Of a stretch of DNA of 64,000 nt, positions 5,553 through 50,749 are shown in pieces (position 1 is the stretch's first letter; the number at the start of each line of letters is the position of its first letter). The position numbers and the translations under genes were made by a program. The stretch is taken from positions 56,823 through 120,822 of the forward strand of contig DASVCL010000012.1 of assembly GCA_036381615.1 (NCBI GenBank), in the 5' to 3' direction. The notes below the pieces were generated by a model. That model worked only from the letters and a program-made list of their open reading frames with translations. It ran no database searches and had not been told where the DNA came from. This DNA comes from Alphaproteobacteria bacterium. Lineage in GTDB: Bacteria; Pseudomonadota; Alphaproteobacteria; CACIAM-22H2.

Positions 5553-6116
5553 ATGGCATCTGAAACGGGCAGGCTCGTCTACGTCATGGGACCATCCGGC
5601 GCCGGCAAGGACTCGGTCCTGCGCGAGGCGAGAAGCCGTATCGACGGGCGCTATCCGGTCGCCTTCGCGCATCGCTACATTACGCGGCCGCCGACTGCCG
5701 GCGACGAAAATCACGTCGCGGTAACCGTCGCCGAATTCGAACTGCGCCGCGCCCGGGGGCTTTTCGCCATGTCGTGGAAGGCGCACGGCCTGCTTTATGG
5801 CATCGGCATCGAAGTCGAGCAGTGGCAAAGGGCCGGCCTGGTCGTCGTCGTCAGCGGATCGCGTCAGCATTTTCAGGAGAATCTGACGACCGCCTGCGAC
5901 GTGGTACCAGTGCTCATTACGGCCGATACGGCCACGCTGGCGCGCCGGCTTTCAGCCCGTGGCCGGGAGAGCGATCAGGCGGTGACGGATCGCCTAAGTC
6001 GCGGTGCTTCCTTCAAAGTCACACATCCGAACTTGGTCACGATCGACAATTCAGGTGCGCTCGAACATGCCGGACAGCGGCTCGCCGATTTGATCGTCTC
6101 GTTGATATCCCGTTAG
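5553..6116 (+). CDS. phnN: ribose 1,5-bisphosphokinase (guanylate-kinase fold)
   Basis: GPSGAGKDS P-loop, AHRYITRP, ENH and W.AHGL.YGIG motifs; GGAG SD before ATG 5553. Confidence 0.9.
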   Translation: MASETGRLVYVMGPSGAGKDSVLREARSRIDGRYPVAFAHRYITRPPTAGDENHVAVTVAEFELRRARGLFAMSWKAHGLLYGIGIEVEQWQRAGLVVVVSGSRQHFQENLTTACDVVPVLITADTATLARRLSARGRESDQAVTDRLSRGASFKVTHPNLVTIDNSGALEHAGQRLADLIVSLISR

Positions 6117-6381
6117 ACCCTCGTCCTGCTCATCGCATCTCGGTCGGTGGACGGCAAGGCGTGCGCGACGCTCAGGTTTAAGGCGCCGCAATGGGTCCGG
6201 ATCGCTCGCCTCGCAACGCGCGGTCGGCATCTCCTCCGTATTCGAGACGCGCAAAGGCCTCCAGCCGTCGGCGGGTCGTACCCCCGACACCATCCACGTC
6301 ACAGACCACTGCTCCCTCGGCTGACGCGCCGCGGAGGTCATGGGCCCGGAGGATCGACGGATCGACCGGCAGGTGCCCCGC

Positions 6382-6978
6382 TCAGTCGTCGAACACCTCG
6401 TTGATGCGAATGACCCTCGGCCCGTACGAGTCGACCGATACCGTGCTCACGGATGCCGGATCGATCTGCAGTCGCTGAAAGAGGTCGAGAGGCATCCCGA
6501 GATAGTAAGCAAGGGCGGCCCGGATCACGTCACCATGGCTGACGGCCAGGATACGGCCGTCGGGCCACTTGCGACGAACCTCATCGAGAAACCCGACGAT
6601 CCGGAGCTGCGCCTCGGGCATCAGTTCCCCACCGGGAATCCGGGTGCCGCTCCGAAACGAGTTGTAGGCTGCCCAAAGCTCGTCTCGCCGCAGATCATCG
6701 AAATCGCGCCCGGCCCACAGGCCGTAATCGATTTCGCTGATCGCTTCCACAACCTCGAAAGGAAGGTCGAGCCGCTGCGCGATCGGTCTCGCCGTTTCCT
6801 GGGCCCGATCGAGCGGACTGCTGAATATGCGGTCGATGGGTCGCAGGCAGAGGCGCTCAGCCAAACGCTTCGCCTGCGCCAATCCCTCCGCACTCAGATG
6901 GACCCCCGACGTGCGACCGAGAATACGCTCGCCGAATGCGGCGTGCTTGGCGTGACGGACGAGGACAAAGGTGGTCAC
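6382..6978 (-). CDS. histidine phosphatase superfamily protein (phosphoglycerate-mutase-like)
   Basis: LVRHA (RHG variant), SSPL.RA.ETA and VSHGD motifs; GTG start overlaps ino1 TGA. Confidence 0.85.
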
Positions 6979-8054
6979 GCCTCACCACGGATAAATGCCT
7001 CCGTGCGCAGCCGCGCTTCCCCGTCCGTAAGCTGACGAGGCGGCGACTTCATGAAGTAGCTGCACGGGCCGTAAAGCGCCCCGCCGATGCCGCGGTCGAG
7101 CGCAAGCTTGGCGCAACGGATGGCATCAATCACAACCCCGGCGGAATTCGGCGAGTCCCATACCTCGAGCTTCAGCTCGCAGTTCAATGGAACGCTGCCG
7201 AACGCGGTCCCCTCCATGCGGATATAGCACCATTTGCGATCACCCAGCCACGGCACGAAATCGCTCGGGCCGACATGGGCCTGCCCCGGCGACAGCGTGT
7301 AGTCGAGCTGGCTGGTGACGGCACGGGTCTTGGAGAGCTTCTTCGACTCAAGGCGCTCGCGCTCGAGCATGTTCAGGAAATCGGTGTTGCCGCCGAAATT
7401 GAGCTGGTAGGCCCGATCCACCCGAACCCCTCGCTCGCGAAACAGGCTCGTCAACACGCGATGGACGATCGTCGCGCCGATCTGCGACTTCACGTCATCG
7501 CCGATGAGCGGCAGGCCCCGTTCCTCGAACCGGCGGCGCCAGTTCTCTCGCGACGCGATAAACACCGGGATGCAATTGATGAAGGCGCAGCCCGCGGAAA
7601 GCGCCTGCTCCGCATACCACTCGGTTGCCTTCTCCGATCCGACCGGCAGGTACGAAACGACGATTTCCGTCCGTGTTTCCCTCAGCGCGGCGGCCACATC
7701 CACCGGCTGCTCTTCCGCCTCCCGAATTTCGTCGCGCAGATACTTGCCGATTCCGTCGTGCGTTACGCCGCGATGGACCACAACGCCAAGACGGGGAACC
7801 TCGGCGAACCTGCAGGTGTTGTTCGGCGCCGCGAACACGGCTTCGGAAAGATCCTTGCCGACCTTGGTGGCATTGATGTCGAAAGCCGCGGAAAACTCGA
7901 TATCTCGGACGTGGTATCCGCCAAGATCCACATGCATCAGGCCGGGGACGAAATCGGCCGCGTCAGCATTGCCATAGAACTGGATGCCCTGCACCAGCGC
8001 GGATGCGCAGTTTCCGACCCCGACGATCGCCACCCGGGCCTTTCCCGACGTCAT
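6975..8054 (-). CDS. ino1: inositol-3-phosphate (myo-inositol-1-phosphate) synthase
   Basis: [38 protein letters not shown] and WDSPNSAG motifs; GAGGGG SD before ATG 8054. Confidence 0.93.
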
Positions 8055-8143
8055 ATCCCCTCGTGCATGGTGCCCACCAAAATCGCCATGACCCGCAGCT
8101 CGCTTCGCAAGCGACAGCGCGGTACCCGTACCGATCTCCACAA

Positions 8144-8168
8144 AACGGCCAAGCCAATGCCTGGTTCC
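8144..8168 (-). promoter_or_regulatory. sigma-EcfG-type promoter for ino1-phosphatase (GGAAC-N16-CGTT)
   Basis: + strand AACG at 8144-8147 and GTTCC at 8164-8168, 16-nt spacer; ~90 nt upstream of ino1. Confidence 0.8.
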
Positions 8169-8217
8169 TTGCGGGATGTGCGTGCGGGAAACGCGACGAC
8201 GGAATACTCGCCGCTCA

Positions 8218-8242
8218 GGAACTCAAAGCGGCACAGTACGTT
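8218..8242 (+). promoter_or_regulatory. sigma-EcfG-type promoter for the glycosyltransferase operon (GGAAC-N16-CGTT)
   Basis: GGAAC 8218-8222 and CGTT 8239-8242; upstream of ATG 8359. Confidence 0.8.
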
Positions 8243-8358
8243 GAACCGGCCATGCGGCGCTGCATCCGCGCATTTCCGCAAGCTCTCTCCTGCGCTGCCC
8301 CTGTTTCGGCGCAAGACGCATCCCGATCACAACGACAGACGCCTTGCCGTCATAAACG

Positions 8359-9471
8359 ATGAAGTTCGTCATTTTCGGCCTCACGATAAGTTCGTCCTGG
8401 GGCAATGGCCACGCGACGCTCTGGCGCGGACTGTTCAACGCACTCAGACGTCGCGATCACCACGTGGTCTTCTTCGAACGCGACGTTCCCTACTATGCCG
8501 CCCACCGCGACTTGGATCAGCTGGATGGCGGCAACCTCATCCTCTATCCTGACTGGGACAGCATCACGCCGGCGGCAATACGGCATCTGGACGACGCAGA
8601 CGTCGCAATCGTCACCTCGTACTGCCCCGATGGAATTGCCGCATCGGATCTCGTGCTTTCGTCACCGCGCCCCGTCCACCTGTTCTACGATCTTGACACC
8701 CCGGTTACGCTCGCGCGGATCGAGGCCGGGGAGCCGACCGGATACATCGGCCCGCGCGGCTTGCGCGACTTCGATCTGGTGCTGAGCTATACCGGCGGCG
8801 ATGCCCTCAGGCAGTTGAGTACGCGGCTGGAAGCACGACGTGTCGCTGCTCTCTATGGTTGCGTCGATCCGGAGGTGCACCGCCCGGCACCGGTGGTGCC
8901 GGCGTATCGTGCCGATCTGTCCTATCTCGGCACCTATGCCCGCGATCGGCAGGATGTGCTCGAAGCGCTGTTCGTCGAACCTGCGCGTATGAGGTCGGCG
9001 CGCCGCTTCGTCCTGGGAGGTGCCGAGTATCCGTACGCATTTCCCTGGACCGAGAACATCTATTTTGTTCGTCACCTGCCGCCGGGAGAGCATGCGGCAT
9101 TCTTCAGTTCGTCGCGCGTGACACTGAACGTGACCCGCACGGCGATGGCCCGTTTAGGCTACTGCCCTTCGGGCAGATTGTTCGAGGCCGCCGCCTGCGG
9201 CACGCCGATCCTGACGGATTGGTGGGACGGGCTCGACGAGTTTTTCCGACCCGGCGAAGAGATTCTGGTCGCAGGCAAGACCGCTGACAGCATCGCCGCA
9301 ATCGAGGCCGATGACGCCGAACTCGCACGAATTGCGCGACTGGCGCGCGAGCGCACACTTGACGAACACACGGCAGACCGCCGCGCGCTCGAACTCGAAC
9401 AGATTCTCGATACCCTTTCGGCGGAACCAAAGGCCGTGCGTACGTCACAGATGAACCCGGTCCCGAGCTGA
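8359..9471 (+). CDS. CgeB-like GT-B glycosyltransferase
   Basis: MKFVIFGLTISSSWGNGHAT N-terminus; C-terminal SGRLFEAAACG.PI motif typical of CgeB/Glyco_trans_1_2 proteins (recalled). Confidence 0.8.
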   Translation: MKFVIFGLTISSSWGNGHATLWRGLFNALRRRDHHVVFFERDVPYYAAHRDLDQLDGGNLILYPDWDSITPAAIRHLDDADVAIVTSYCPDGIAASDLVLSSPRPVHLFYDLDTPVTLARIEAGEPTGYIGPRGLRDFDLVLSYTGGDALRQLSTRLEARRVAALYGCVDPEVHRPAPVVPAYRADLSYLGTYARDRQDVLEALFVEPARMRSARRFVLGGAEYPYAFPWTENIYFVRHLPPGEHAAFFSSSRVTLNVTRTAMARLGYCPSGRLFEAAACGTPILTDWWDGLDEFFRPGEEILVAGKTADSIAAIEADDAELARIARLARERTLDEHTADRRALELEQILDTLSAEPKAVRTSQMNPVPS

Positions 9472-9478
9472 GAGCACC

Positions 9479-10252
9479 ATGTGGGGAATCATCCCAGCCG
9501 CCGGGAGCGGCACGCGCATTCAGCCACTTGCGTTCTCGAAGGAGCTGTTACCGGTCGGAAGCCGCCGTGATGGCCAGACCGAACGCCCCAGGGCCGTGAG
9601 CGAGTACCTGGTCGAGCGGATGGTCGCGGCAGGAGCGGACAAGATCTGCTTCGTCATCTCACCCGGAAAATCGGACATTCTGGAATATTTCGGTGCAGGC
9701 GTCGGCGCGGCCGATTTCGCCTATGTGGTCCAGCAACGACCGCTCGGCCTGTGCGATGCCATCTTCCGGGCCGTGCCGCTGATTCGCGCTGACGAGCCGG
9801 TCATGATCGGGCTTCCGGACACGATCTGGTTCCCGGCAGACGGCCTGAGACATCTTCCCGACGATACATTGTCATTTCTTCTGTTTCCGGTTGCGCAGCC
9901 GGAGCTCTTCGATGCGGTCATCACGGACCGCTCAGGTCGCGTCATGCAGATCCAGGTCAAATGCCCGAATCCGCAATCGTCCTGGATCTGGGGGGCCTTC
10001 AAACTCCCCGGCGCGATCTTGCATGAACTGTTCCGTCTTTGGTGCGAGCGCGGCAGACGGGACGAGTATATCGGAACGCTCGTCAATCATTATGTCGCGA
10101 TGGGCGGTACGGCGATCGGTTTTCCCGCCGGCCGCGCGTATGTCGACGTCGGCACCGTGCACGGCTATCGCGAGGCCATCCGTCTGCTTTCGGAATCCGC
10201 AGCAGAGCCGACGCATGCCGCCGATCTTACGGTAATCACGAGCGATGCCTGA
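9479..10252 (+). CDS. sugar-phosphate nucleotidyltransferase family protein
   Basis: GIIPAAGSGTRIQPL...KELLP signature; QQRPLGL..A and DVGT motifs. Confidence 0.85.
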   Translation: MWGIIPAAGSGTRIQPLAFSKELLPVGSRRDGQTERPRAVSEYLVERMVAAGADKICFVISPGKSDILEYFGAGVGAADFAYVVQQRPLGLCDAIFRAVPLIRADEPVMIGLPDTIWFPADGLRHLPDDTLSFLLFPVAQPELFDAVITDRSGRVMQIQVKCPNPQSSWIWGAFKLPGAILHELFRLWCERGRRDEYIGTLVNHYVAMGGTAIGFPAGRAYVDVGTVHGYREAIRLLSESAAEPTHAADLTVITSDA

Positions 10253-10258
10253 CCAACC

Positions 10259-11038
10259 ATGAATTCACGTGCCGAAATGACCCCGGCCGACATCGAGGCG
10301 CGCGTGCGCGCCCTTGGTACCTGGTTTCACAACATCGACCTGAAAGGCGTCAAAACGGCGCCAAACCACTTCCTCGGCGACTATCCGGCCATCAAGTGGC
10401 GCCACTTCGCCGACGCCCTGCCGACGGACGTCAGTGGCAGGACGGTGCTCGATATCGGCTGCAATGCCGGCTTCTACTCCATCGAAATGAAGCGGCGTGG
10501 CGCCGCACGGGTCGTGGGGATCGAGCCGGCAGAGGAATATCTGGAGCAGGCACGGTTTGCCGCAGAGATGTGCGAAGTCGACATCGAACTCCACCGACTT
10601 TCGGTCTATGACGTCGCGAAGCTCGGCGAGAAGTTCGACATCATCCTGTTCATGGGCGTCTTTTATCACCTGCGTCATCCGCTGCTGGCGCTCGACCTCA
10701 TACACGACCACGTCGCCAAGGACATACTGGTCTTCCAGTCCATGCTGCGCGGCAGCGATATCGTCGAGCCGATCGATGAGAACTATCCGTTTCGGGAGCG
10801 CGGCATCTTCGAACGTCCGGGTTTCCCGCGCATGAGCTTCATCGAGCAGCGTTACGCCGATGACGAGACAAACTGGTGGATTCCCAATCGTGCCTGTGCC
10901 GAGGCCGTGCTTCGGAGTTCCGGCTTCGAAATCGTGAACCATCCGGAAGAGGAAGTGTTCATTTGCCGCCGCATCAATCTACCTGATCCGCCAGAAGGAC
11001 CGAGAGCGGTCTACCCAGCAAAGGGCGCACAGGAATGA
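10259..11038 (+). CDS. SAM-dependent methyltransferase, resembles TIGR04290 family (CmoB-related fold)
   Basis: WFHNIDL, VLDIGCNAGFYS, GVFYHLRHPLL and TNWWIPN motifs; family name from recall. Confidence 0.75.
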   Translation: MNSRAEMTPADIEARVRALGTWFHNIDLKGVKTAPNHFLGDYPAIKWRHFADALPTDVSGRTVLDIGCNAGFYSIEMKRRGAARVVGIEPAEEYLEQARFAAEMCEVDIELHRLSVYDVAKLGEKFDIILFMGVFYHLRHPLLALDLIHDHVAKDILVFQSMLRGSDIVEPIDENYPFRERGIFERPGFPRMSFIEQRYADDETNWWIPNRACAEAVLRSSGFEIVNHPEEEVFICRRINLPDPPEGPRAVYPAKGAQE

Positions 11039-11988
11039 TCGAAGCAGCCATGATCTGGAACGAACCCAACAACAAGTCGCATTGGGATTTCCAGATCGAC
11101 CCCGAGTGGCGGGCCTTCGCTGAAATGGCGAAACTCGCGGGCCAGGCGATCAAGGCGGAGAATCCCAAACTTACGCGCGTTCTGGGCGGCATTTCGCCGA
11201 TCGACCCGGCTTTCATCGAGAATATGGCCCGACTTGGCGTTCTCGATCACATGGACGCCATTGCGGTGCACGGCTTCCCGCTCGATTGGAACCACTGGAT
11301 GCTGGACGATTGGCCGCAGAAGCTGAAGGAAATCCAGGCCGTGACACACCTGCCGGTCTGGGTAACGGAGGTCGGCGTATCAACCTTCGGCGCTGAAGAA
11401 GTACAGGCATTCGGTCTGAGACGTACCGCGGACCTGCTCATCGGCCGTGCACCGCGTATACACTGGTACAGCCTTTATGACCTGCCCAAGGCCTGGGTGG
11501 CGACGACGCGCCATCGCGAGGCCGAAGGTTCGGCCTACTATCGACACTACTACATGGGCCTGTTGCGGGAAGACGGCTCGCCCAAGATGGCGGTCGAATC
11601 CTTCTACGACATCGCCCCCGAATTCGGTATCTGTCAGTGGTTCCATTTCGAGGACCACAGGCTGGAAGACGCCGTATCGTGGCTACGACGGCTCGGCGTC
11701 AGCTATGTGCGTACGGGACTCAGTTGGGCCGACAGCTACCGACCGAATGCGCAAGCTTGGTTCGACCGTCAGATGGCCTCCCTCGAGGATTTCGCCGTCA
11801 CGGTAACCTTCTGTTTTACGCCGGAACATCGGGGTATCGTGCCGCATCACACAAGTCCGCCACACGATCCCCGTGAATTCGCGGAGTTTTGCGGCCGTAT
11901 GGTGCGCCGGTACGCCGCCGACTCTGACGGCACACGACTCGCAATCGCCCCCGCCGATGTGCTGTGCGCCGACGATCACGCCGACTGA
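11035..11988 (+). CDS. clan GH-A glycoside hydrolase ('beta-xylosidase'-like), apparently circularly permuted
   Basis: WNEP acid/base at residues 8-11, VTEVG nucleophile mid-protein, and the usual N-terminal strands (LGVSYVRTGLSW, PP.D...FAEF...RY) at the C-terminus; ATGA overlap with upstream gene. Confidence 0.75.
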   Translation: MIEAAMIWNEPNNKSHWDFQIDPEWRAFAEMAKLAGQAIKAENPKLTRVLGGISPIDPAFIENMARLGVLDHMDAIAVHGFPLDWNHWMLDDWPQKLKEIQAVTHLPVWVTEVGVSTFGAEEVQAFGLRRTADLLIGRAPRIHWYSLYDLPKAWVATTRHREAEGSAYYRHYYMGLLREDGSPKMAVESFYDIAPEFGICQWFHFEDHRLEDAVSWLRRLGVSYVRTGLSWADSYRPNAQAWFDRQMASLEDFAVTVTFCFTPEHRGIVPHHTSPPHDPREFAEFCGRMVRRYAADSDGTRLAIAPADVLCADDHAD

Positions 11989-12025
11989 GGCCGGGGCGCC
12001 GGCTCCCGATCGGTCGCGGGACACA

Positions 12026-12302
12026 ATCCCGGTCGTCGTGGTCGGTGAACCGGTTGACCCCGCCCACCCGGGACTTGAAGCGCCGAATGGCCAAATGCCA
12101 CAGGATCCAGGCACGAGCTCTCGCCCAGCTTCCCGTCGGGATCGAGCGATACCGGCGCGCGCCAACCTATGACGGTCGTCATCCTCCCCATCCAGAGCCG
12201 CTCTTCTACGAGTCTTTTTTCTGGAGGATGACGGGTGCGCGATGGTGCGTGCTGGCCAGCACGGCACATGGCGAGCTGGGGCGGGACGGATCATGTCTCT
12301 GA
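12026..12302 (+). pseudogene. probable 3' remnant of a deleted gene (glycosyltransferase-like), with one frameshift near 12072
   Basis: IPVVVVGEPVDPAHP continues after a 1-nt shift as LKRRMAKCHRIQARALAQLP...PLFYE...MTGARW; stop overlaps the next gene start; no plausible 5' part. Confidence 0.4.
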
Positions 12303-13357
12303 CGGTTCTTAGCGTTGCCTACCCATTCGCCCCCGTAAGCCTGGATGCGGTCGGCGGTGCAGAACAGGTCGTCGCGACATTGGATGATGCACTCGTCGCC
12401 GCAGGTCACCGCTCCATCGTACTGGCCCGTGCAGACTCGGACGTCCGGGGCCTGCTCGTCGGCGTGCCGACACCGCGGGGCGAGATCGACGATGCCGTTC
12501 GTGCCGCAACGTACGGTCGTTACAGGCAGGCAATCCGGCGAGTGCTTCGGGAACGGGACGTCGACGTCGTCCATATGCACGGCATCGACTTTCATGCCTA
12601 CCTCCCCCCGACCGGGTCACCGGTTCTGGTCACCTTGCACCTGCCGTTGAACTGGTATCCGCCGAACGCGCTTTCGGCGCGGCCGGGAGTCGCCTTCAAC
12701 TGCGTTTCCGCCGCACAAAGGCGGACCGCAGCGCCGAACCTGCAGTTGCTGCCGGACATCGAAAACGGGGTACCGGACGCGTTATTCGATATCCGCTTGA
12801 AAAAACGTCGATATGCACTGGCGCTCGGTCGAATCTGCCCCGAGAAGGGTTTCCACCTCGCCCTCGAGGCGGCGCGTGGGGCGGATATACCGTTGCTGGT
12901 TGCAGGTGAGGTCTTTCCATATGCAGCCCATCGTGCCTATTTCGAAGAGGCGATCCGGCCACGCCTGGATTCGCAGCGCCGTTTCGTCGGCGCGGTCGGC
13001 TTCACGCGGAAACGCCGACTTCTCGCTGCCGCGCAATGCGTCGTCGTTCCAAGCCTCGCACCGGAGACGGCATCGCTGACTGCCGTCGAAGCGCTGGCGA
13101 GCGGGACACCGGTCGTTGCTTTTCCGAGCGGTGCGCTCGCCGATCTGATTCAGCACGGACGAACCGGATTCCTGGTCGGCGATGTCGATGAGATGGCGGC
13201 GGCGATCGTGCTGGCCGGTACGCTGCGGCCGGAAGACTGCCGGGCCGCCGTCGCGCATATGCGAGTGGCGCGCATGACTTTCGGATATGTCGAGCAGTAC
13301 CACCGTCTCATTCATGAGATGCGGAGCACGCTCCATGGAACGCTTGCGGTTTCGTAG
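12293..13357 (+). CDS. glycosyltransferase family 4
   Basis: GGAEQV N-terminal motif, GRICPEKG and ET.SL.AVEALASGTPVV motifs. Confidence 0.88.
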   Translation: MSLTVLSVAYPFAPVSLDAVGGAEQVVATLDDALVAAGHRSIVLARADSDVRGLLVGVPTPRGEIDDAVRAATYGRYRQAIRRVLRERDVDVVHMHGIDFHAYLPPTGSPVLVTLHLPLNWYPPNALSARPGVAFNCVSAAQRRTAAPNLQLLPDIENGVPDALFDIRLKKRRYALALGRICPEKGFHLALEAARGADIPLLVAGEVFPYAAHRAYFEEAIRPRLDSQRRFVGAVGFTRKRRLLAAAQCVVVPSLAPETASLTAVEALASGTPVVAFPSGALADLIQHGRTGFLVGDVDEMAAAIVLAGTLRPEDCRAAVAHMRVARMTFGYVEQYHRLIHEMRSTLHGTLAVS

Positions 13358-14372
13358 CATCCACACCAACGCCGATTTCGAGGCGTTGACCCCAGCATGG
13401 CGGGCGTTGTGGGCGCGGGACAGCCGCGCGACGCTGTTTCAGACGCCCGGCTGGACGTTGGCGTGGTGGCGACATATCGGCTGCGGCCGGCTGCTGGTAT
13501 TTGCCGTCTCAATCGAGGATCGGCTCGTCGGCCTCGCGCCATTCTTCGTCGACGAAACGGCTGCGGGGCCCCGGATCGGGTTGATCGGCGAAGGCATCAG
13601 CGACTACATCGATGTCCTGCTCGACGATACGCTTCCCGCCGATATCGTGCGCGCCGGTCTTCGCGCGCAGCTTCTCAACGCCGGATTCGTCGAAATCCAT
13701 CTCCGTGACCTGCCGTCAGCATCTCCCCTGATTGCGGACGCCATTGGCTGGCAATGCGATCCGCATCCCGGCATGCCTTGTCCGGTCCTGCGCCTTCCGG
13801 ACAGGATTGCAGACCTTTCGTCGCCGATCCCGCGCCCGATGCTTCAGAAGCTTGCCTATCATCGGCGGCTCGCCGACCGGCACGGCGGTATCCGTGTCGA
13901 GCACGCGGACAGAAGCAGCTTTGAGCGCCTTTTCGAGACCCTGATGCGTCTTCACACCGCCCGCTGGTCGACCCACGGGCAGCCGGGCGTACTTGCGGAT
14001 CCATCCATCGGCGCTCTCAATCGCGAGGCCGCGTTCGCATTTCTGGCCGACGGTCTGCTGCGGCTCTATGCGCTCCATATCGGAAACCGGATCGCCAGCG
14101 TCTTCTACGGCATGCGATCCAAAGGGGCGTTCTACTATTACCTGGGGGGCTTCGATCCGGAGCTGGCACGTTTCAGTCCCGGAACCTTGATCATCGGCCA
14201 TGCGATTGAAGAAGCAGTACGGGAGAATGCGACGGAGTTTCACTTCCTTCGCGGGGGCGAAGCGTACAAGTACCGATGGGGAGCAACGGACCGCCTGAAC
14301 GTCGACTGTGCGATCCGGCTCCATTACTCCACCGGCACGGAGGTGCAGTGTGAGCCAGGCCTTACGGCTTGA
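13335..14372 (+). CDS. GNAT-fold protein, CelD/BcsL (Acetyltransf_6)-like
   Basis: LFQTPGW..AWW, YYYLGGFDP..ARFSPG and FLRGGEAYKYRWGA motifs. Confidence 0.8.
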   Translation: MERLRFRSIHTNADFEALTPAWRALWARDSRATLFQTPGWTLAWWRHIGCGRLLVFAVSIEDRLVGLAPFFVDETAAGPRIGLIGEGISDYIDVLLDDTLPADIVRAGLRAQLLNAGFVEIHLRDLPSASPLIADAIGWQCDPHPGMPCPVLRLPDRIADLSSPIPRPMLQKLAYHRRLADRHGGIRVEHADRSSFERLFETLMRLHTARWSTHGQPGVLADPSIGALNREAAFAFLADGLLRLYALHIGNRIASVFYGMRSKGAFYYYLGGFDPELARFSPGTLIIGHAIEEAVRENATEFHFLRGGEAYKYRWGATDRLNVDCAIRLHYSTGTEVQCEPGLTA

Positions 14373-14871
14373 CCGATCGGTTCCCGACGGCTGCTCGATT
14401 CGGCTGTGCCGACGGGCGGATCTGGCCAGACTGGAGTGGGCCGGCATGTTCTCCGATCACCGGCATATCATCCGTGCAGCCTTTGAGCGGCAGAAGCGCG
14501 GAGAAAACGTCATGCTCGTGGCGCTTGCGGATGGCTTTCCGGCAGGACAAGCCTGGATCGATCTGGTGAAGAAGCGCCATGAGAAGATCGCCGTCATCTG
14601 GGCGGTTCGTGTGCATCCGACCCGGCAGCGACTCGGCATCGGACAGTGCCTGATGACAAAAGCCGAGCAGATCGCCGCTGCGAACGCCTTCCGATTCACC
14701 GAAATCGGTGTCGAGCGAGACAATGCGGGCGTGATCCCCTTCTATCGACGTCTTGGCTATCACTTGCAGGGAAGCGAGGCCGAACTGTTCCGTTACGAGA
14801 CCCCTGACGGCCGCACCGTCGAGCGCGTCATCGACCAGTGGCTGTTCCGCAAGCCGGTCGGGGCACCGTAA
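14350..14871 (+). CDS. GNAT family N-acetyltransferase
   Basis: V.VHPTRQRLGIG acetyl-CoA motif A and FY.RLGY; GGAGGT SD before GTG 14350. Confidence 0.8.
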   Translation: MSQALRLDRSVPDGCSIRLCRRADLARLEWAGMFSDHRHIIRAAFERQKRGENVMLVALADGFPAGQAWIDLVKKRHEKIAVIWAVRVHPTRQRLGIGQCLMTKAEQIAAANAFRFTEIGVERDNAGVIPFYRRLGYHLQGSEAELFRYETPDGRTVERVIDQWLFRKPVGAP

Positions 14872-15705
14872 ATGCCGTATCCGCGACATGATATCGGCAT
14901 TCGATGGACGATCGGCGATGTCAGCGCCCCCGGGTTCGAAGCGTTGCGGCTGTCGATCTGGGGGGCACGGCGCCTATTCGGTTCCGATGCCACCTACGTG
15001 GTCTGCGTCAATACATTGTCCCCCGACGAGGCGCGGCGGCGCACCGGCAAAGTCCCCGCGGATGTCGTCTGGCGCGCATCGGAGGGGGATTTGCCGCAAT
15101 TTCTCGGCGCATATCTAAGTGCAGAAATGGCCGAGGGTGTTGCGTGGAAGCTTGCGCCTCTCCGCCTGTTCCCGAGCCGCTACGAGCTCTCGCTCGACAA
15201 CGACTGCATCCTTTGGGCCATGCCGGTAGCCATTGCGCAGTGGCTAGAGTCTGGCGACAGGAACACATGCGTGCTTGCCGCCGACATAAAGACATGTTTC
15301 GGCAAGTTTGCCGACCTATGCGGCCCCGAGCCCGGTAACACCGGAATTCGCGGCTTCAGTCCCGGGTTCGATCTTGCGCACGTCCTTGAAAGGATGCTCC
15401 GCGACAGGCCGGTACGGCTCGAGAGCGAGCTCGACGAGCAAGGGCTCCAGGTGGCGGCACTCCGCCGCTACGCAAGACCGCTCGTCGTCACGACCGACGA
15501 GGTAACGATCTGTTCGCCCTTCTGGCCTCATCAATCCCATATCGGGCGATGCGGCGCGCATTTCGTGGGGCTCAATGCCCACGCCTTGCCTTGGACGTAC
15601 TATGACCGGCCCGCAACGGCGTGCGTCATCGAGCACTGGGAACGGCACAAGCCGCAACTCTACGAGGCCGTTGGTCTCCATTACCCTGCAGCTGTTGCCG
15701 AGTGA
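14872..15705 (+). CDS. hypothetical protein, possible GT-A-like (DxD) enzyme
   Basis: 277 aa ORF abutting the upstream stop; SLDNDC DxD-like motif after a beta strand; no family recognised. Confidence 0.6.
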   Translation: MPYPRHDIGIRWTIGDVSAPGFEALRLSIWGARRLFGSDATYVVCVNTLSPDEARRRTGKVPADVVWRASEGDLPQFLGAYLSAEMAEGVAWKLAPLRLFPSRYELSLDNDCILWAMPVAIAQWLESGDRNTCVLAADIKTCFGKFADLCGPEPGNTGIRGFSPGFDLAHVLERMLRDRPVRLESELDEQGLQVAALRRYARPLVVTTDEVTICSPFWPHQSHIGRCGAHFVGLNAHALPWTYYDRPATACVIEHWERHKPQLYEAVGLHYPAAVAE

Positions 15706-15709
15706 TGCC

Positions 15710-18217
15710 TCATTCGGCCGGAGCGAGCGACCGCTCGGATTCGACGCGTTCCCGCAGCACGCCGTCACCGATCGCCGCCCGAACAGCCTCCTCGACCCGT
15801 TCGACCCAGATGAAGTGTACGCTGCGGCGAACTTCATCCGGAATATCCTCCAGGTCCTTCTGGTTCCGCGATGGCAGCAAGACGGTCGTGATCCCCGCAC
15901 GAACGGCCGCAACGACCTTTTCCTTGATCCCGCCCACCGGCAGCACGAGCCCCCGCAAGCTGATTTCGCCGGTCATCGCGACGTCGCTGCGTACCGTCCG
16001 ACCCGATACCAGAGACGCGAGCGCCACGAACATCGCGATGCCGGCACTGGGCCCGTCCTTCGGTATCGCGCCCGCCGGTACGTGCACATGGATGTCCTGC
16101 TTCTCGAAGAAGTCGGTCGGCAGCCCAAGGTCGCGAACGCGCGACTTGATCAGGCTCAGCGCGATCTGCGCGCTTTCCTTCATCACGTCGCCGAGATGGC
16201 CGGTAAGGGTCAGTCGTCCGCTGCCCGGGACCCGAGTGGCTTCTATGAACAGAATATCGCCGCCGACCGGTGTCCAGGCCAGCCCCGTCGCCACACCGGG
16301 AACACTCGTCCGCATGGCAAGCTCGCTTTCGAACCTGCGCGGGCCGAGAATTCCGCTCAGATCCTCGGGCCCGACGACGGTCTTGCCCGTACGCCCCTCG
16401 GCGATACGCATTGCGACATGACGGAAAACCCCACCGATCTCGCGCTCGAGGTTCCGGACCCCGGCCTCGCGCGTGTAGTCGCGAATGATCGTCCGCAAGG
16501 CGTCATCGGTGATCTCGCACTGATCGATGGAGAGGCCGTTTGCCTCCAGCTGCCGGCGCACGAGATAGCGGCGTGCGATCTGAACCTTTTCCTCCTCCGT
16601 GTAACCCGTCAGCGGAATGACCTCCATGCGGTCCCGGAGCGGTCCGGGAATTGTGTCCAACATGTTGGCCGTGGCGATGAACATCGTCTTGCTCAGGTCG
16701 AACGGTACGCCGAGATAGTTGTCGCGGAACGTATTGTTCTGCTCCGGATCCAGGACCTCGAGAAGCGCCGAAGCCGGATCCCCGTGGAAGCCGCCGGCGC
16801 CGAGCTTATCGATCTCGTCCAGCATCATGACCGGATTGCGTGTGCCCGCCTTGCGGATCGCCTGGATAATGTTCCCAGGCAGCGAACCGATGTAGGTGCG
16901 CCGGTGACCGCGGATCTCCGCTTCGTCGTGAACGCCGCCAAGGCTGACCCGCACGAATTTCCGGCCGGTTGCCCGCGCGATGCTCTGTCCCAGCGACGTC
17001 TTCCCGACGCCCGGCGGCCCCACGAAGCACAGGATCGGGCTCTTGCCGCCCGGATTGAGCTTGCGGATGGCGAGGAACTCGAGGATGCGGCGCTTGATCT
17101 TCTCCAGCCCGTAGTGATCCTCGTCAAGAATGCGTCGTGCCTCGGCGATGTCGATCCCTTCTTCACTGAGAACCGACCAGGGTAGCGCAATCAGCCAGTC
17201 GAGATACGCACGGATCATCGAATACTCGGCGGCTGCCTCCGGCATACGCTCCAGTCGCGACAATTCCTTTCGCGCCTGCTGTTCGACCTCCTGCGGCATC
17301 CCGGCATCGGCAATTGCCTTCGACAGGTCGGCGATCTCGGCGGACTTGTCGTCGGCTTCGCCGAGCTCTTTCTGAATCGCCTTGAGTTGCTCCCGAAGCA
17401 GATACTCGCGCTGGCGCGCCTCCATAGCGTCACGCGTCTGCTGGCCGATATCGCGCGACAGGCGCAGGACCTCGATCCGATAGGCGAGCAGCCACAACAC
17501 CCGGTCCAGTCGCGCACGGATATCGAGCGTCTCCAGGACCTCCTGCTTCTCACTGGGTTTCAGATCCATGAAGCTCGCGACGAGATCGGCAAGCCCGGAC
17601 GCTGACGTAATCGACTGGACCGCCTGGGTCAGTTCCGCAGGCGCATTCGGCAACAGGCCGATCGCCTCGATCGCACGTTGCTTCAGCTGGTGCACGCGGG
17701 CTTCGACCTCCGCCGTCGCCACGTCCGGGTCTTCGATCAGCTCGACGCGCGCCGCAAGAAACGGGTAGCCATCGAGAAACTCACGCACGCGGAACCGTTG
17801 CTGTCCCTGGCAGACGACATGGTGCGTACCGTCCGGCGCGGTCAGGTAACGCAGGATGGCGGCCGACGTGCCGATTTCGTGCAGATCTGACGGCTTGGGA
17901 TCAACGACGTCGGGATTGCGCTGAAGCAGCAGTCCGATCGATCTTTCGTTACGCGCCGCCTCCTGCGCCGCCGCGACCGAACGCTCGCGGCCCAGTGATA
18001 CGGGTAGCACCATCCCTGGGAACAAGACCAAGTTGCGGACCGGGATGATGACGAGCGCATCGTCCGGCAGCGGCGGGAGCACCTTGCGTTCCGGAGTCGG
18101 TTGCGGCGGGACAGCATTGCGCGTGGTCCCGCTGTCGTCCGGTTGGTCGCGTGTCTCGTGCGCAATCATGTCGTGACCATTCGCTAGAGGAGCTTCCGCA
18201 GACTCAGCGTCAGACAT
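15710..18217 (-). CDS. lon: ATP-dependent Lon protease (Hsp20-associated type)
   Basis: GPPGVGKT Walker A, LLDEIDK-like Walker B, PKDGPSAG catalytic Ser and GGIKEK; start overlaps hsp20 (alternative 18169). Confidence 0.95.
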   Translation of the reverse strand: MSDAESAEAPLANGHDMIAHETRDQPDDSGTTRNAVPPQPTPERKVLPPLPDDALVIIPVRNLVLFPGMVLPVSLGRERSVAAAQEAARNERSIGLLLQRNPDVVDPKPSDLHEIGTSAAILRYLTAPDGTHHVVCQGQQRFRVREFLDGYPFLAARVELIEDPDVATAEVEARVHQLKQRAIEAIGLLPNAPAELTQAVQSITSASGLADLVASFMDLKPSEKQEVLETLDIRARLDRVLWLLAYRIEVLRLSRDIGQQTRDAMEARQREYLLREQLKAIQKELGEADDKSAEIADLSKAIADAGMPQEVEQQARKELSRLERMPEAAAEYSMIRAYLDWLIALPWSVLSEEGIDIAEARRILDEDHYGLEKIKRRILEFLAIRKLNPGGKSPILCFVGPPGVGKTSLGQSIARATGRKFVRVSLGGVHDEAEIRGHRRTYIGSLPGNIIQAIRKAGTRNPVMMLDEIDKLGAGGFHGDPASALLEVLDPEQNNTFRDNYLGVPFDLSKTMFIATANMLDTIPGPLRDRMEVIPLTGYTEEEKVQIARRYLVRRQLEANGLSIDQCEITDDALRTIIRDYTREAGVRNLEREIGGVFRHVAMRIAEGRTGKTVVGPEDLSGILGPRRFESELAMRTSVPGVATGLAWTPVGGDILFIEATRVPGSGRLTLTGHLGDVMKESAQIALSLIKSRVRDLGLPTDFFEKQDIHVHVPAGAIPKDGPSAGIAMFVALASLVSGRTVRSDVAMTGEISLRGLVLPVGGIKEKVVAAVRAGITTVLLPSRNQKDLEDIPDEVRRSVHFIWVERVEEAVRAAIGDGVLRERVESERSLAPAE

Positions 18218-19441: not shown

Positions 19442-21514
19442 ATGATGGCTGACGTTTCTGCGGAGCAAGAACGTCCACGGTCTGAAGCTGCACCGCGTCT
19501 CGCGGAAGCTCGGGACCGGATGGTCACACGTCAACTGGCCGGGCGCGGCATCATCGAGCCGCGCGTCCTCAGCGCCATGCGACGCGTACCGCGCGAATTG
19601 TTCGTTCCGGACCGACTGCGGGAATTCGCCTACGACGATACGCCGCTACCGATTGGCGAGGGACAGACAATCTCGCAGCCGTATATCGTCGCGCTGATGC
19701 TGGAAGCGGCGATGATCAGCCCGGGCGATCGCGTCCTGGAGATCGGAACTGGCCTCGGCTATGCCGCTGCCGCCGCAAGTCATCTTGCGGCGGCGGTATA
19801 CACCGTCGAACGCATAAAAACCCTTGCCGACAGCGCACGTGCGCGCCTCGCTGCCGCCGGTGTGGACAATGTGCATGTGATGCACGGCGACGGAACGCGT
19901 GGCTGGCCGGAGTTTGCGCCGTTTGACGCGATCATCGTGGCTGCCGCCAGTCCCGAGGTCCCCCGCAGCCTGCGGGACCAGCTCCGCGTGGGGGGAAGAC
20001 TGATCATTCCGACCGGTGAAGGACCGCATCTGCAACGGTTGAAACGCATCACCCGGCGCGGCACGCATGATTACGAGGAGGAGGATCTCGGTTCCGTCGC
20101 ATTCGTTCCGCTGGTCGGAACCGAGGGCTGGCCGCCGGATGATACCGGGCAGCACAACCGCGGTTGGGGCGTCTGGCGCCGCTCACGGGGCGGCGCTGCG
20201 CATACCGAGCGCAGCGATAATGCCATCGAACTGATCAAGCGCCATGCCGAACCGCTGCCCCAACTCGAATCCGAAAGTTTCGGCGAAGCATTCGACCGGT
20301 TCGGCACGTATCGGATGGTCCTCCTCGGCGAGTCGACGCACGGCACGTCAGAATTCTATCGTGCTCGCGCACGGCTCACACGGCACCTCGTCGAGCACCA
20401 CGGATTCAACATCGTGGCGATCGAGGCTGACTGGCCGGATGCTGCCCTGGTCGACGCCCTCATCCGCGATCGTCCGCGTCGTCTGACGGATGAGCGACCC
20501 TTCACCCGCTTCCCGGTCTGGATGTGGCGGAACACCGATTTCAGCGAGCTTGTCCGATGGGCACGCAGCTACAACGAGAACGTCACGGATGACGCCCGAA
20601 AAGTGAGCTTGCACGGCCTTGATCTCTACAGCCTCTACGCGTCTACGGACGCGGTCATCAAGTACCTCGACAAGGTCGACCCGGAAGCGGCGCGGATCGC
20701 GCGGGAACGATACGGATGTCTCACACCCTGGCAGTCCGATCCCGCCACTTACGGACGAGCGGCCCTCAACACCGGCTATGCGCTGTGCGAGGCCGGTGCG
20801 ATGGAGATTCTGCGAGATCTGCTGGCGAAACGGATCGAATACATAGGGCGCGACAGTGACGCCTATTTCGACGCCGCGCAGAATGCCCGCCTCGTTGCCG
20901 CCGCCGAACGCTATTACCGGATCATGTATTACGGCTCAGCCGAGTCCTGGAATCTTCGGGACAAGCACATGTTCGAGACTTTGCAGGCGATCCTTGCGGC
21001 ACGTGGACCGTCGGCAAAGGCCGTGGTCTGGGCGCACAACTCGCATATCGGCAATGCCGCCGCGACGCAGATGGGAGCGCACGGCGAACTGAATATCGGT
21101 CAGCTTTGTCGCGCGGAATTCGGGCCGGAGGCGGCCCTTATCGGGTTCAGCACCGACCGGGGCAACGTCGCCGCCGCCTCCGACTGGGGCGGCCCGATGG
21201 AAGTCAAACAGGTTCGACCGTCGCGTCCCGACAGCTACGAATACCTCTGCCGCGAGTCGGTGGACGCACCGTTCCTGCTCGATCTGCGCCCGGATGGGCG
21301 ACGAGACCTGTTGCGAACCTTGTTCCGGAATCGGCTGGAACGTGCGATCGGCGTGATCTATCGGCCGGAGACCGAGCGGATGAGCCACTATTTCGACGCT
21401 GTCCTGCCGCGACAGTTCGATGCGTGGGTCTGGTTCCCCGAGACGCGCGCCGTAACGCCGCTGCCTGTGCCTCAAACGGAAGGCACGCGCGACACGTATC
21501 CGTTCGGTCTATAG
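19442..21514 (+). CDS. pcm: protein-L-isoaspartate O-methyltransferase fused to erythromycin-esterase-like domain
   Basis: N-terminal QTISQP, VLEIGTG.GY and PFDAIIVAA PIMT motifs; C-terminal LLGESTHG, EADWPD and WAHNSH EreA/B-family motifs. Confidence 0.9.
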   Translation: MMADVSAEQERPRSEAAPRLAEARDRMVTRQLAGRGIIEPRVLSAMRRVPRELFVPDRLREFAYDDTPLPIGEGQTISQPYIVALMLEAAMISPGDRVLEIGTGLGYAAAAASHLAAAVYTVERIKTLADSARARLAAAGVDNVHVMHGDGTRGWPEFAPFDAIIVAAASPEVPRSLRDQLRVGGRLIIPTGEGPHLQRLKRITRRGTHDYEEEDLGSVAFVPLVGTEGWPPDDTGQHNRGWGVWRRSRGGAAHTERSDNAIELIKRHAEPLPQLESESFGEAFDRFGTYRMVLLGESTHGTSEFYRARARLTRHLVEHHGFNIVAIEADWPDAALVDALIRDRPRRLTDERPFTRFPVWMWRNTDFSELVRWARSYNENVTDDARKVSLHGLDLYSLYASTDAVIKYLDKVDPEAARIARERYGCLTPWQSDPATYGRAALNTGYALCEAGAMEILRDLLAKRIEYIGRDSDAYFDAAQNARLVAAAERYYRIMYYGSAESWNLRDKHMFETLQAILAARGPSAKAVVWAHNSHIGNAAATQMGAHGELNIGQLCRAEFGPEAALIGFSTDRGNVAAASDWGGPMEVKQVRPSRPDSYEYLCRESVDAPFLLDLRPDGRRDLLRTLFRNRLERAIGVIYRPETERMSHYFDAVLPRQFDAWVWFPETRAVTPLPVPQTEGTRDTYPFGL

Positions 21515-34229: not shown

Positions 34230-34237
34230 GCCTCTAC

Positions 34238-38268: not shown

Positions 38269-38280
38269 CGAAAGCAGCAG

Positions 38281-45600: not shown

Positions 45601-45932
45601 TGCTGATCCGAAGTGTGATTGATCACCAGCTCGGTGATCACCCGGATATTCCGACGATGCGCCTCCCGCACGAATCGCGAGAAGTCCCGCATCGTTCCGT
45701 AGGCCGGGTTGACGGCCGTGTAGTCGGCGATGTCATACCCGTCGTCACGCAGCGGCGATGGATAGAACGGCAGCACCCAGATGGCCGTGACGCCGAGATC
45801 CTGCAGATAGTCGAGCTTCTCCGTCAGACCGACAAAGTCTCCGAGGCCATCTCCGTTCGAATCGTAAAAGGCCTTGACGTGAACCTCGTAGATGATGACG
45901 TCCTTGTACCAAAGCGGGTCATCGGCAAGCAT
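42642..45932 (-). CDS. treS: trehalose synthase fused to maltokinase (TreS-Mak/Pep2)
   Basis: N-terminal GH13 TreS ([31 protein letters not shown]); C-terminal kinase ([20 protein letters not shown]). Confidence 0.95.
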
Positions 45933-45959
45933 CGAGCGCTCCGCCCGGGTGGTTCTTGA

Positions 45960-47984: not shown

Positions 47985-48068
47985 GTCACGCCATCGCCTT
48001 TCACGCTGCTTCCGGGCTGATTTCCGACCCCGGATACGATGCCTTTGACCCGGTTCTTTCGGCGTCGG

Positions 48069-49533: not shown

Positions 49534-49558
49534 AACGCGGCTTAGCTGCGTTCGTTCC
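49534..49558 (-). promoter_or_regulatory. sigma-EcfG-type promoter for otsA and probably downstream glucan genes (GGAAC-N16-CGTT)
   Basis: + strand AACG 49534-49537 and GTTCC 49554-49558. Confidence 0.8.
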
Positions 49559-49663: not shown

Positions 49664-50209
49664 TCAGTCCGCCGCGGCGAACTCGTCTTCGACCTTGCTG
49701 TCGTCAACCTTGGGCGGCAGTCCCTGCTCGGACAGTAGACGTCGCAACTCGACGCGGGCGCGGTTGAGCCGCGACTTCACCGTGCCCACCGCGCACTTGC
49801 AGACCTCGGCTGTATCCTCGTAGCTCAGTCCTGCGGCGGCCACGAGGATCAGCACCTCGCGATGCTGCACTGACATCTTCATCAGCGCTTTCCGCAGCTC
49901 CCCGAACTCGACCGCCGAAAGCTGGCCTGGCGGTGTCGGCAGCGCCGCATCGACGAGGTCATCGACGGGCTCGACCTCGACCTTCCGCCGGCGCAGATCG
50001 CTGATGTGCTGGTTGCGCAGAATGGTGAGGAGCCACGCCTTGATATTCGTGCCCTTCTGGAACTTGTCTTCGGCCGCGAGTGCGCGAACCAGGGTGTCGT
50101 GCACAAGATCGTCGGCTCGCTCCTTGTTTCGGGTCAGCACCCGCGCGAACGCGCGCAGCTGCGGCAAGCATTCTACGATCTGTGCGCGGAAATCACTGCT
50201 GCCGTCCAT
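49664..50209 (-). CDS. ecfG: ECF sigma factor, EcfG/SigT (general stress response)
   Basis: LRAFA..L......ADDLV, WL.TILRN and GTVKSR..RAR motifs; adjacent to nepR and phyR. Confidence 0.92.
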   Translation of the reverse strand: MDGSSDFRAQIVECLPQLRAFARVLTRNKERADDLVHDTLVRALAAEDKFQKGTNIKAWLLTILRNQHISDLRRRKVEVEPVDDLVDAALPTPPGQLSAVEFGELRKALMKMSVQHREVLILVAAAGLSYEDTAEVCKCAVGTVKSRLNRARVELRRLLSEQGLPPKVDDSKVEDEFAAAD

Positions 50210-50723: not shown

Positions 50724-50749
50724 AACGTCCAGCGAATTCCAAAGGTTCC
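50724..50749 (-). promoter_or_regulatory. sigma-EcfG-type autoregulatory promoter of nepR-ecfG (GGAAC-N17-CGTT)
   Basis: + strand AACG 50724-50727 and GTTCC 50745-50749. Confidence 0.82.

Follow-up and report, generated by a model that had tools for sequence, protein, structure and literature searches.

A TIGR04290/TIGR04295 gene cassette divided between two loci with EcfG-type promoters in an alphaproteobacterial genome

Introduction

The TIGR04290/TIGR04295 cassette is a bacterial gene set recognised by two marker families, a methyltransferase dependent on S-adenosylmethionine (SAM) and a B12-binding radical-SAM protein. In this work, a stretch of 64,000 nucleotides (nt) from an uncultured alphaproteobacterium (assembly GCA_036381615.1, contig DASVCL010000012.1, forward-strand positions 56,823 to 120,822), hereafter the window, was analysed, and its positions 6382-15705 were found to be half of a two-locus copy of this uncharacterised cassette. 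An earlier, sequence-only reading of the window had presented the region as a candidate new system, a description that had to be given up, since the cassette is already catalogued under both family names and its stress control is already contained in published data sets for Sinorhizobium meliloti and Methylobacterium extorquens.

In S. meliloti the cassette corresponds to SMb20238-SMb20253, and every gene was upregulated upon overexpression of the sigma factor RpoE2, with logFC values of 0.8-3.0 that included 2.24 for ino1, 2.96 for the phosphatase gene SMb20250 and 1.84 for the gene of a barrel protein (Lang et al., 2018, Data Set S1, PMC6180224). Transcription start sites (TSSs) with RpoE2 motifs have been mapped for SMb20249 (GGAACCA-N13-GGGTTT, TSS 255207) and SMb20245 (Schlueter et al., 2013, PMC3616915). 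As annotated in strain RCAM1115, in which it was examined here, this cassette comprises genes for two short-chain dehydrogenase/reductase (SDR) proteins, a GT4 glycosyltransferase (GT), three further GTs, another SDR and the TIGR04290 methyltransferase, two oxidoreductases, ino1, a histidine phosphatase and a 'beta-xylosidase'.

The cassette of M. extorquens AM1 is META1_0139-0147, with ino1 as META1_0140 and the radical-SAM gene as META1_0146. Values are given for the eight genes META1_0139-0146, among which META1_0139-0143 and 0146 were 2.0-2.6-fold lower in an ecfG1 ecfG2 double mutant and in a sextuple ecfG mutant, and META1_0144 and 0145 just 1.4-1.6-fold lower, which was not significant (S2 Table, PMC4814048). 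Dependence on EcfG/RpoE2 has been shown, then, for the orthologues in both species; the data sit in supplementary tables, and the main texts of these regulon papers do not discuss the cassette genes. A search of main-text literature found no paper naming the marker families or the S. meliloti locus tags and no characterised product, in agreement with the sequence-only reading.

Other described systems resemble parts of the cassette. For the mycobacterial polymethylated polysaccharides, methylglucose lipopolysaccharide (MGLP) and methylmannose polysaccharide (MMP), the phosphatase GpgP acts after GpgS, and MmpH recycles or trims MMP. In the synthesis of mycothiol in Actinobacteria, the as yet unidentified phosphatase MshA2 acts after MshA. 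Finally, TeGSS of Thermosynechococcus lengthens a free compatible solute using UDP-glucose (PMC9909042).

Results

Two loci form one cassette

The TIGR04290 marker gene is in the window, at 10259-11038 on the plus strand, and its product scored 374 bits against a cut-off of 300. The TIGR04295 marker, the gene of the B12-binding radical-SAM protein, is on another contig (C14:25287-26552, minus strand; 713 bits vs. a cut-off of 400), within a locus of seven genes on the same strand (C14:20782-28800; L086 1283-9379) that encode two SDR epimerase/dehydratases, the B12-radical-SAM enzyme, a GT4 and three CgeB-like GTs. The first SDR gene has an exact GGAAC-N16-CGTT motif 54 nt ahead of it, and otsA and otsB are directly beside the locus (L086 about 11275-13696).

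In Bryobacteraceae, Verrucomicrobiota, Nitrospirota and a deltaproteobacterium, the methyltransferase gene and the barrel gene that adjoins it run directly into the genes for the SDRs, the B12-radical-SAM enzyme, the GT4 and three CgeB-like GTs. Only 5-10 kb separate the two markers in most other genomes, whereas here they are split between C12, the contig of the window, and C14. When 401 evenly drawn Alphaproteobacteria were sampled, the methyltransferase was present in 17 and ino1 in 42, and the two markers co-occurred in 15 of 17 genomes (p = 3e-23); the sister genus G187 also has the two-locus split, with matching gene order and promoter at the second locus. Therefore, from this co-occurrence and from the split and promoter shared with the sister genus, the window and C14 loci are one system of three EcfG-headed transcription units, namely ino1-hisP, the operon on the plus strand of the window and that on C14. 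The extent that the sequence-only reading gave to the system was right for the window half and missed the seven genes on C14, the remnant of a PIG-L deacetylase gene and the modular structure described below.

Taken as a whole, this copy has both marker families above their cut-offs and the two SDRs, the B12-radical-SAM enzyme, the GT4, four CgeB-like GTs, ino1, nucleotidyltransferase, methyltransferase, barrel and histidine phosphatase (hisP) genes of the cassette, and its predicted control by a sigma factor of the EcfG/RpoE2 family is shared with the S. meliloti (SMb20238-SMb20253) and M. extorquens (META1_0139 onward) copies. It differs in being split over two contigs and in the turned ino1-hisP pair, which gives back-to-back promoters. 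Unlike the S. meliloti and M. extorquens copies, it also has a module of PIG-L, GT4, Fem-like, GT8-like and GNAT (GCN5-related N-acetyltransferase) genes, with PIG-L truncated. The cassette is present in about 4% of the sampled alphaproteobacterial species. In S. meliloti it is carried by the symbiosis megaplasmid, and replicons of Azospirillum, Rhizobium, Roseomonas and Paracoccus also have it.

The domain searches agreed with the gene content given by the sequence-only reading, namely ino1 and a phosphatase on one side and, on the other, a GT, a nucleotidyltransferase, a methyltransferase, a GH-A-like protein, a GT4, two GNATs and a protein with a DxD motif; the plus-strand run consists of eight intact genes and one gene remnant. 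The minus-strand unit starts with ino1 (6975-8054), encoding an inositol-3-phosphate synthase of 359 amino acids (aa) that matches PF01658 (1e-34) and TIGR03450 (535 bits, positions 2-355 of 355); its start was placed at the ATG at 8054, which has GAGGGG ahead of it, and a GTG at 8141 was discounted. The GTG start of hisP (6382-6978, minus strand) overlaps the ino1 stop by 4 nt, and its 198-aa product belongs to the histidine phosphatase superfamily (PF00300, 1e-50), with a score for TIGR03848 (MSMEG_4193-like) of 196 bits, slightly below the cut-off of 204.

The first plus-strand gene (8359-9471) encodes a CgeB-like GT-B glycosyltransferase (PF13524, 4e-38), one of four paralogues in the genome, whose orthologues with 59-71% identity hold the same position in many loci; a sequence search of the PDB with it gave nothing usable. 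It is followed by a short sugar-1-phosphate nucleotidyltransferase of the RmlA/GalU type (9479-10252, plus strand; PF00483), with glucose-1-phosphate thymidylyltransferases as best solved relatives (E 1e-11), and by the methyltransferase, which has CmoB and the sugar O-methyltransferase EvdMO1 among its nearest solved relatives. The fourth gene (11035-11988, plus strand) encodes a TIM-barrel, clan GH-A-like protein, 73% identical to SMb20251 of S. meliloti, that weakly matches PF11790 and matches PslG with E 1e-4 over residues 3-185. This protein begins at the WNEP acid/base motif, which in clan GH-A enzymes normally comes after strand 4, and neither W8-N9-E10-P11 nor E112 varies among 24 sequences drawn from several phyla. 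Its AlphaFold2 (AF2) model (pLDDT 84) has eight strand-helix units, which would be consistent with a circular permutation of the GH-A fold; Foldseek returned generic TIM barrels only, which a permuted strand order would also produce, so that neither a proven GH-A fold nor a proven permutation is claimed.

The junctions from the CgeB-like GT gene to the barrel gene are of 7 nt, 6 nt and a 4-nt overlap, so the run is tightly packed, as claimed, up to that point, but not beyond it, with 305 nt before the GT4 gene and 73 nt before the small GNAT gene. In the NCBIfam search no cassette protein was above the cut-off for any named enzyme family, and none of the 19 proteins of both loci has a membrane-like segment or a signal-like N-terminus.

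EcfG-type promoters and the general stress response

The two exact GGAAC-N16-CGTT motifs facing apart that the sequence-only reading had reported are present in the sequence: GGAACCAGGCATTGGCTTGGCCGTT at 8144-8168 on the minus strand, as the EcfG-type promoter of ino1-hisP, and GGAACTCAAAGCGGCACAGTACGTT at 8218-8242 on the plus strand, as that of the plus-strand operon. The start codons are ~90 nt and ~117 nt downstream of the minus and plus motifs, with predicted leaders of ~83 nt and ~110 nt, respectively. No sigma-70-like promoter was found within 6000-16200, and Rfam detected no RNA element in 6000-16000.

In the 64-kb window there are 13 GGAAC-N16/17-CGTT sites vs. 1.31 expected, a number reached in 0 of 100 shuffles, and all 13 have a plausible start codon downstream; genome-wide there are 130 in 3.63 Mb. 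The genes headed by these motifs in the window include nepR-ecfG and those for an Fe/Mn superoxide dismutase, two PRC-barrel proteins, a KGG-repeat protein and an SDR, as well as otsA and treZ. The PhyR-NepR-EcfG locus itself is in the window, ~35 kb from the inositol/GT cluster, with ecfG at 49664-50209 on the minus strand (Pfam Sigma70_r2/r4_2), an EcfG motif heading nepR-ecfG at 50724-50749 on the minus strand, where a small open reading frame (ORF) lies downstream of the motif and upstream of ecfG, and phyR, with PhyR domains, at 50981-51850 on the plus strand. As the window motifs head textbook general-stress targets, this organism has PhyR-NepR-EcfG and uses GGAAC-N16/17-CGTT.

When the intergenic region between ino1 and the GT gene was aligned with that of locus L005 from the sister genus, whose proteins are 50-84% identical, the islands kept were the two promoters, the remainder having diverged. 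In 14 of the 25 alphaproteobacterial loci that could be assessed, the block has an exact motif, with differing spacers, 69-154 nt ahead of its first gene, and five more loci have near-variants; given a chance of such placement of 0.003 per locus, this corresponds to a binomial P of 7e-30, a value somewhat inflated by kinship among the genomes. This placement was not seen in loci of phyla that lack EcfG. By sequence, the motifs at 8144-8168 and 8218-8242 look functional as EcfG promoters.

Upstream of the S. meliloti units no strict CGTT motif was found; the -10 element of the mapped RpoE2 promoters in this species is GGTT/GTT. The motif mapped for SMb20249 is the one located here 40 nt upstream of S. 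meliloti ino1, and the window ino1 promoter at 8144-8168 is equivalent to this mapped promoter and TSS. The proposal of a co-regulated pathway stands, then, as regards the promoters, which head both divergent units, are conserved in relatives and match mapped RpoE2 promoters of S. meliloti, but ino1 is not an obligatory part of it, as detailed below.

The link between ino1 and the cassette

A pattern scan gave 484 methyltransferase relatives in species genomes of several soil phyla, and 80 loci were mapped with the window proteins. The methyltransferase and barrel genes are adjacent in 76 of the 80, and hisP adjoins this pair in most of them. In loci of Azospirillum, Microvirga, Beijerinckiaceae, Xanthobacteraceae, Astrobacterium and Mesorhizobium, the genes for Ino1, the histidine phosphatase, GT, nucleotidyltransferase, methyltransferase and GH-like barrel form one co-directional operon.

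In the sample of 401 genomes, ino1 and the methyltransferase gene were found together in 8 vs. 1.8 expected (Fisher p = 9e-5; 4e-4 without this genome), ino1 being present in 8 of the 17 methyltransferase-positive and in 34 of the 384 methyltransferase-negative Alphaproteobacteria, and in 6 of the 8 co-occurring genomes the two genes are neighbours. In other phyla, 17 of 20 genomes with a methyltransferase locus devoid of ino1 have this gene elsewhere. The single operon in many genomes and the enrichment bear out the claim that ino1 is tied to the GT and methyltransferase genes. The check on co-occurrence of ino1 with the operon across genomes, proposed with that claim, did not refute it, although the link is not obligatory.

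In the rhizobial cassettes of Rhizobium etli CIAT 652 (L094) and S. meliloti (L088/L089), a divergent pair of genes for a Zn-dehydrogenase and a Gfo/Idh/MocA (inositol-dehydrogenase-like) protein was observed; these oxidoreductases are not in the copy of the genome studied here. The presence of this pair in R. etli, where ino1 is missing, gives a hint that an imported cyclitol may be used by some cassettes.

An accessory module with a truncated deacetylase

The sequence-only reading treated all plus-strand genes as a single run, which was not borne out for the GT4, the two GNATs and the DxD protein, as they form a separate accessory module with a truncated deacetylase. In its full form this module, a unit of its own, consists of PIG-L, GT4, Acetyltransf_6 and a GT8-like protein, to which a GNAT may be added. 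Microvirga roseola has it as a free-standing group of five genes (L090 4212-8337), closed by the same small GNAT gene, among PRC-barrel and other stress-type genes, and in metagenomic relatives it is fused after the barrel gene; in the closest relative, which does not have the module, lon directly follows the barrel gene.

Intact PIG-L genes (270-290 aa) are found at this position in loci L009, L011, L015, L018, L025, L029, L038, L073, L082, L091 and L092. Here, tblastn with the intact L011 protein detected a remnant at 12051-12281 on the plus strand (within ORF 11964-12302), in the 305-nt gap separating the barrel and GT4 genes, which corresponds to the C-terminal ~77 codons (47% identity to aa 195-271 of L011 only), the catalytic N-terminal part being gone. 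No second PIG-L copy was found in the genome. With the deacetylase truncated, the decoration step assigned to this module is, judging by the sequence, probably impaired or altered in this genome.

The GT4 glycosyltransferase of the module (12293-13357, plus strand; PF13692/PF00534/PF13439) has the glucosylsucrose synthase TeGSS as its best solved relative (7fg9, E 2e-33), followed by a tetrahydrobiopterin glucosyltransferase, AviGT4 and PimA. It precedes, here as in relatives, a FemAB/CelD-like GNAT of the Acetyltransf_6 family (13335-14372, plus strand; PF13480, 5e-35), for which the PDB sequence search gave no usable solved relative. After a gap of 73 nt come the gene for the small GNAT acetyltransferase (14446-14871, plus strand; PF00583, 4e-14) and the last gene of the cassette (14872-15705, plus strand), whose 277-aa product matched no Pfam or NCBIfam family. 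Its AF2 model (pLDDT 92) is of the GT-A fold, with LgtC, glycogenin and XXYLT1 as top Foldseek matches (prob 1.0, TM about 0.5), and D109-N110-D111 is invariant in its family. The label 'DxD protein' was right because this confident model of a GT8-like, retaining GT-A enzyme goes with that invariant motif. The family has more than 1700 homologues, all unnamed, that are 57-70% identical across phyla, and in relatives its gene always comes after those for PIG-L, GT4 and Acetyltransf_6.

Genomic surroundings

Positions 31338-49478 of the window hold a trehalose/alpha-glucan block of treY, malQ, treZ, glgX, glgB, treS-pep2, glgE and otsA, with one EcfG motif ahead of treZ, at 38337-38362 within the 3' end of glgX, and another ahead of otsA, at 49534-49558. 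The window is, in this sense, a general-stress island for carbohydrate protectants, a context that fits a desiccation or osmotic role for the cassette without proving it.

One further exact EcfG motif, at 38285-38309 on the plus strand, points into the antisense strand of glgX; the sole plus-strand ORF that follows (38356-40107) matched no Pfam family, so that no credible gene is headed. This site is either a chance match, of which ~1.3 are expected per window, or an antisense promoter facing that of treZ.

A second paralogue of the Lon protease is encoded at 15710-18217 on the minus strand, converging on the cassette, with 4 nt between it and the final stop codon of the latter. The sister genus has a conserved counterpart in this position (76% identity); the genome's other Lon gene (51% identity) is on contig C70. 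The paralogue beside the cassette has no EcfG motif of its own. Lon is reported to degrade the Caulobacter homologue of EcfG (PMC10662116). Further downstream, at 19442-21514 on the plus strand, a protein of 690 aa fuses a protein-L-isoaspartate O-methyltransferase (PCMT) with an erythromycin-esterase-family domain.

Discussion

A proposed pathway to an inositol-primed oligosaccharide

The reading of both loci that we favour, and hold to be reasonably probable, is that of an EcfG-switched pathway to a cytoplasmic, inositol-primed, methylated oligosaccharide acting as a stress protectant; every chemical step and the physiological role are ones that we infer. As all three transcription units are EcfG-headed, the general stress response would therefore switch the pathway on together. 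Ino1 would make inositol-3-phosphate, a glycosyltransferase would add a sugar to it, and the histidine phosphatase would then strip the phosphate from the glycosylated inositol-phosphate, following a two-step logic like that of GpgS/GpgP or MshA/MshA2. The nucleotidyltransferase and the SDRs would provide nucleoside diphosphate (NDP)-(deoxy)hexoses, with which the four CgeB-like GTs and the GT4 could lengthen a short chain. Methylation of this chain would fall to the SAM methyltransferase and the B12-radical-SAM enzyme, the GH-A-like barrel might trim or recycle the chain, and the accessory module (PIG-L, GT4, FemAB-like GNAT, GT8-like GT and GNAT) could add an amino-sugar or acyl decoration. 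The product would stay in the cytoplasm as a stress protectant.

In its gene roles, this scheme would be close to what is generally known of MGLP and MMP, as these also start in the cytoplasm from a small primer made by a synthase and a phosphatase of the histidine phosphatase family (GpgS/GpgP), use soluble GTs together with SAM methyltransferases and acyltransferases, include in the cluster a hydrolase of their own (MmpH in MMP) and have no exporter. It differs in its primer, which would be inositol here and is glucosylglycerate there, and in the B12-radical-SAM enzyme, the SDR sugar-nucleotide modifiers, the Gram-negative hosts and the EcfG control. The likeness to TeGSS (PMC9909042), a soluble GT4 matched over its full length, is confined to the accessory GT4.

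Two further candidates were rejected. The di-myo-inositol-phosphate pathway (IPCT/DIPPS) was set aside, as no cluster protein has the CDP-alcohol phosphatidyltransferase (DIPPS) domain. A minimal methyl-inositol pathway, suggested by the ino1-hisP-methyltransferase-GH arrangement in Skermanella, was dropped because the methyltransferase tracks, almost perfectly, the half of the cassette with the radical-SAM and GT genes.

Several points weigh against the inositol-primed oligosaccharide. None of the cassette members has a known product, intermediate or enzyme activity, the GH-A assignment of the barrel is weak, with weak sequence matches and generic Foldseek matches, and the effect of EcfG in M. 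extorquens was modest, at about 2-2.6-fold. An exporter may be encoded elsewhere in the genome. The ino1 gene was absent from 9 of the 17 methyltransferase-positive Alphaproteobacteria, several of them with 99-100% complete genomes, and the R. etli CIAT 652 cassette on pC has neither ino1 nor hisP nor the barrel gene. With ino1 missing from about half of the carriers, inositol is therefore no universal primer, unless it is imported or made otherwise.

Alternative explanations

The most serious rival follows from these last data, as the GT cassette could make a product without inositol and Ino1 with its phosphatase be a merely co-regulated module for free myo-inositol, used as a compatible solute or in another pathway. 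Beyond the nine carriers devoid of ino1 and R. etli, with its operon of SDR, GT and methyltransferase genes, it can draw on the 34 Alphaproteobacteria that have ino1 and no methyltransferase and on the divergent transcript of its own that ino1 occupies in the window. Even so, we regard this explanation as rather unlikely, given that in many loci from several phyla ino1 is inside the operon among cassette genes, often translationally coupled to them, that the phosphatase gene accompanies the methyltransferase/GH pair also where ino1 is at another site, and that the two genes are adjacent in most of the genomes in which they co-occur (6 of 8).

The second rival concerns the fate of the product, for which the sequence-only reading had offered a methylated or acylated, possibly inositol-containing glycan, glycolipid or solute. 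CgeB is linked to a spore surface glycan in Bacillus, and a secreted or surface polysaccharide, such as an extracellular polysaccharide (EPS), a capsule or a cyst- or spore-coat-like glycan for desiccation, exported by machinery encoded elsewhere, could account for this general link, for the seven glycosyltransferases of the two loci, for the weak resemblance of the barrel to the EPS hydrolase PslG and for the polysaccharide pyruvyl transferase near some loci. Nevertheless, the search of both loci (19 proteins) and of the conserved neighbours in the 80 loci revealed no lipid-carrier (polyprenyl-phosphate) transferase, flippase, polymerase, Wza/Wzc, ABC or other exporter, and no lipid genes, and the cassette proteins have, as described above, neither membrane segments nor signal-like N-termini. 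A surface polysaccharide is accordingly improbable, and since all the enzymes are soluble and no exporter genes are present, the product is most likely cytoplasmic. The closest solved relative of the accessory GT4, TeGSS, works on a free solute, which is a point for a cytoplasmic small molecule. Within the earlier range of product classes, a soluble, methylated and inositol-primed oligosaccharide is favoured, and a glycolipid or an EPS is disfavoured for want of membrane segments and of export or lipid genes.

A pathway to a low-molecular-weight thiol like mycothiol or bacillithiol, made from Ino1, GT4, PIG-L and acyl transfer to an amine, we consider very improbable. The parts it could claim are an actinobacterial-type Ino1 (the TIGR03450 match of 535 bits), a GT4 weakly like MshA and BshA, the PIG-L position in relatives, GNATs weakly like MshD and a phosphatase that resembles the actinobacterial MSMEG_4193 family and could fill the MshA2 role. 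However, MshC is missing, its sole match in the genome (299 bits vs. a cut-off of 485) being cysteinyl-tRNA synthetase, and the scores for MshA (41 vs. 462 bits) and MshD (19 vs. 163 bits), as well as that for BshA, are far below the cut-offs. Furthermore, PIG-L is truncated here, so that an MshB equivalog is lacking too, and neither the closest relative nor many of the other loci have the accessory module. Such a pathway would leave the SDRs, the radical-SAM enzyme, the methyltransferase and four CgeB-like GTs unexplained, and mycothiol synthesis has no place for the many additional GTs and methylases.

Finally, that the two motifs are chance matches between unrelated divergent genes, as ~1.3 motifs expected per 64 kb and the motif at 38285-38309 with no credible gene behind it might suggest, is effectively refuted by the retention of both motifs in L005 where the flanking intergenic DNA is not kept, by the motif heading the homologous block in 14 of 25 loci and by the orthologous promoters mapped in S. 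meliloti.

Implications

The inositol-primed oligosaccharide could, more tentatively, represent an undescribed class of cytoplasmic metabolite, that of short oligosaccharides primed with inositol and O-/C-methylated, as a Gram-negative counterpart of the mycobacterial polymethylated polysaccharides that would be deployed by the general stress response as a desiccation or osmotic protectant alongside trehalose and would be common to soil Acidobacteriota, Verrucomicrobiota and Nitrospirota; we hold this broader proposal to be possible but doubtful. For the cassette itself, the present locus shows that the accessory module can decay and, as far as its promoter motifs indicate, that the two halves stay co-regulated though physically split. 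The cassette is among the larger enzyme sets under general-stress control, and identification of its product would give functions to the CgeB-like GTs, TIGR04290, TIGR04295, the permuted-looking barrel and the GT8-like family, and would provide a new stress metabolite for the biology of the rhizosphere and of dry soils.

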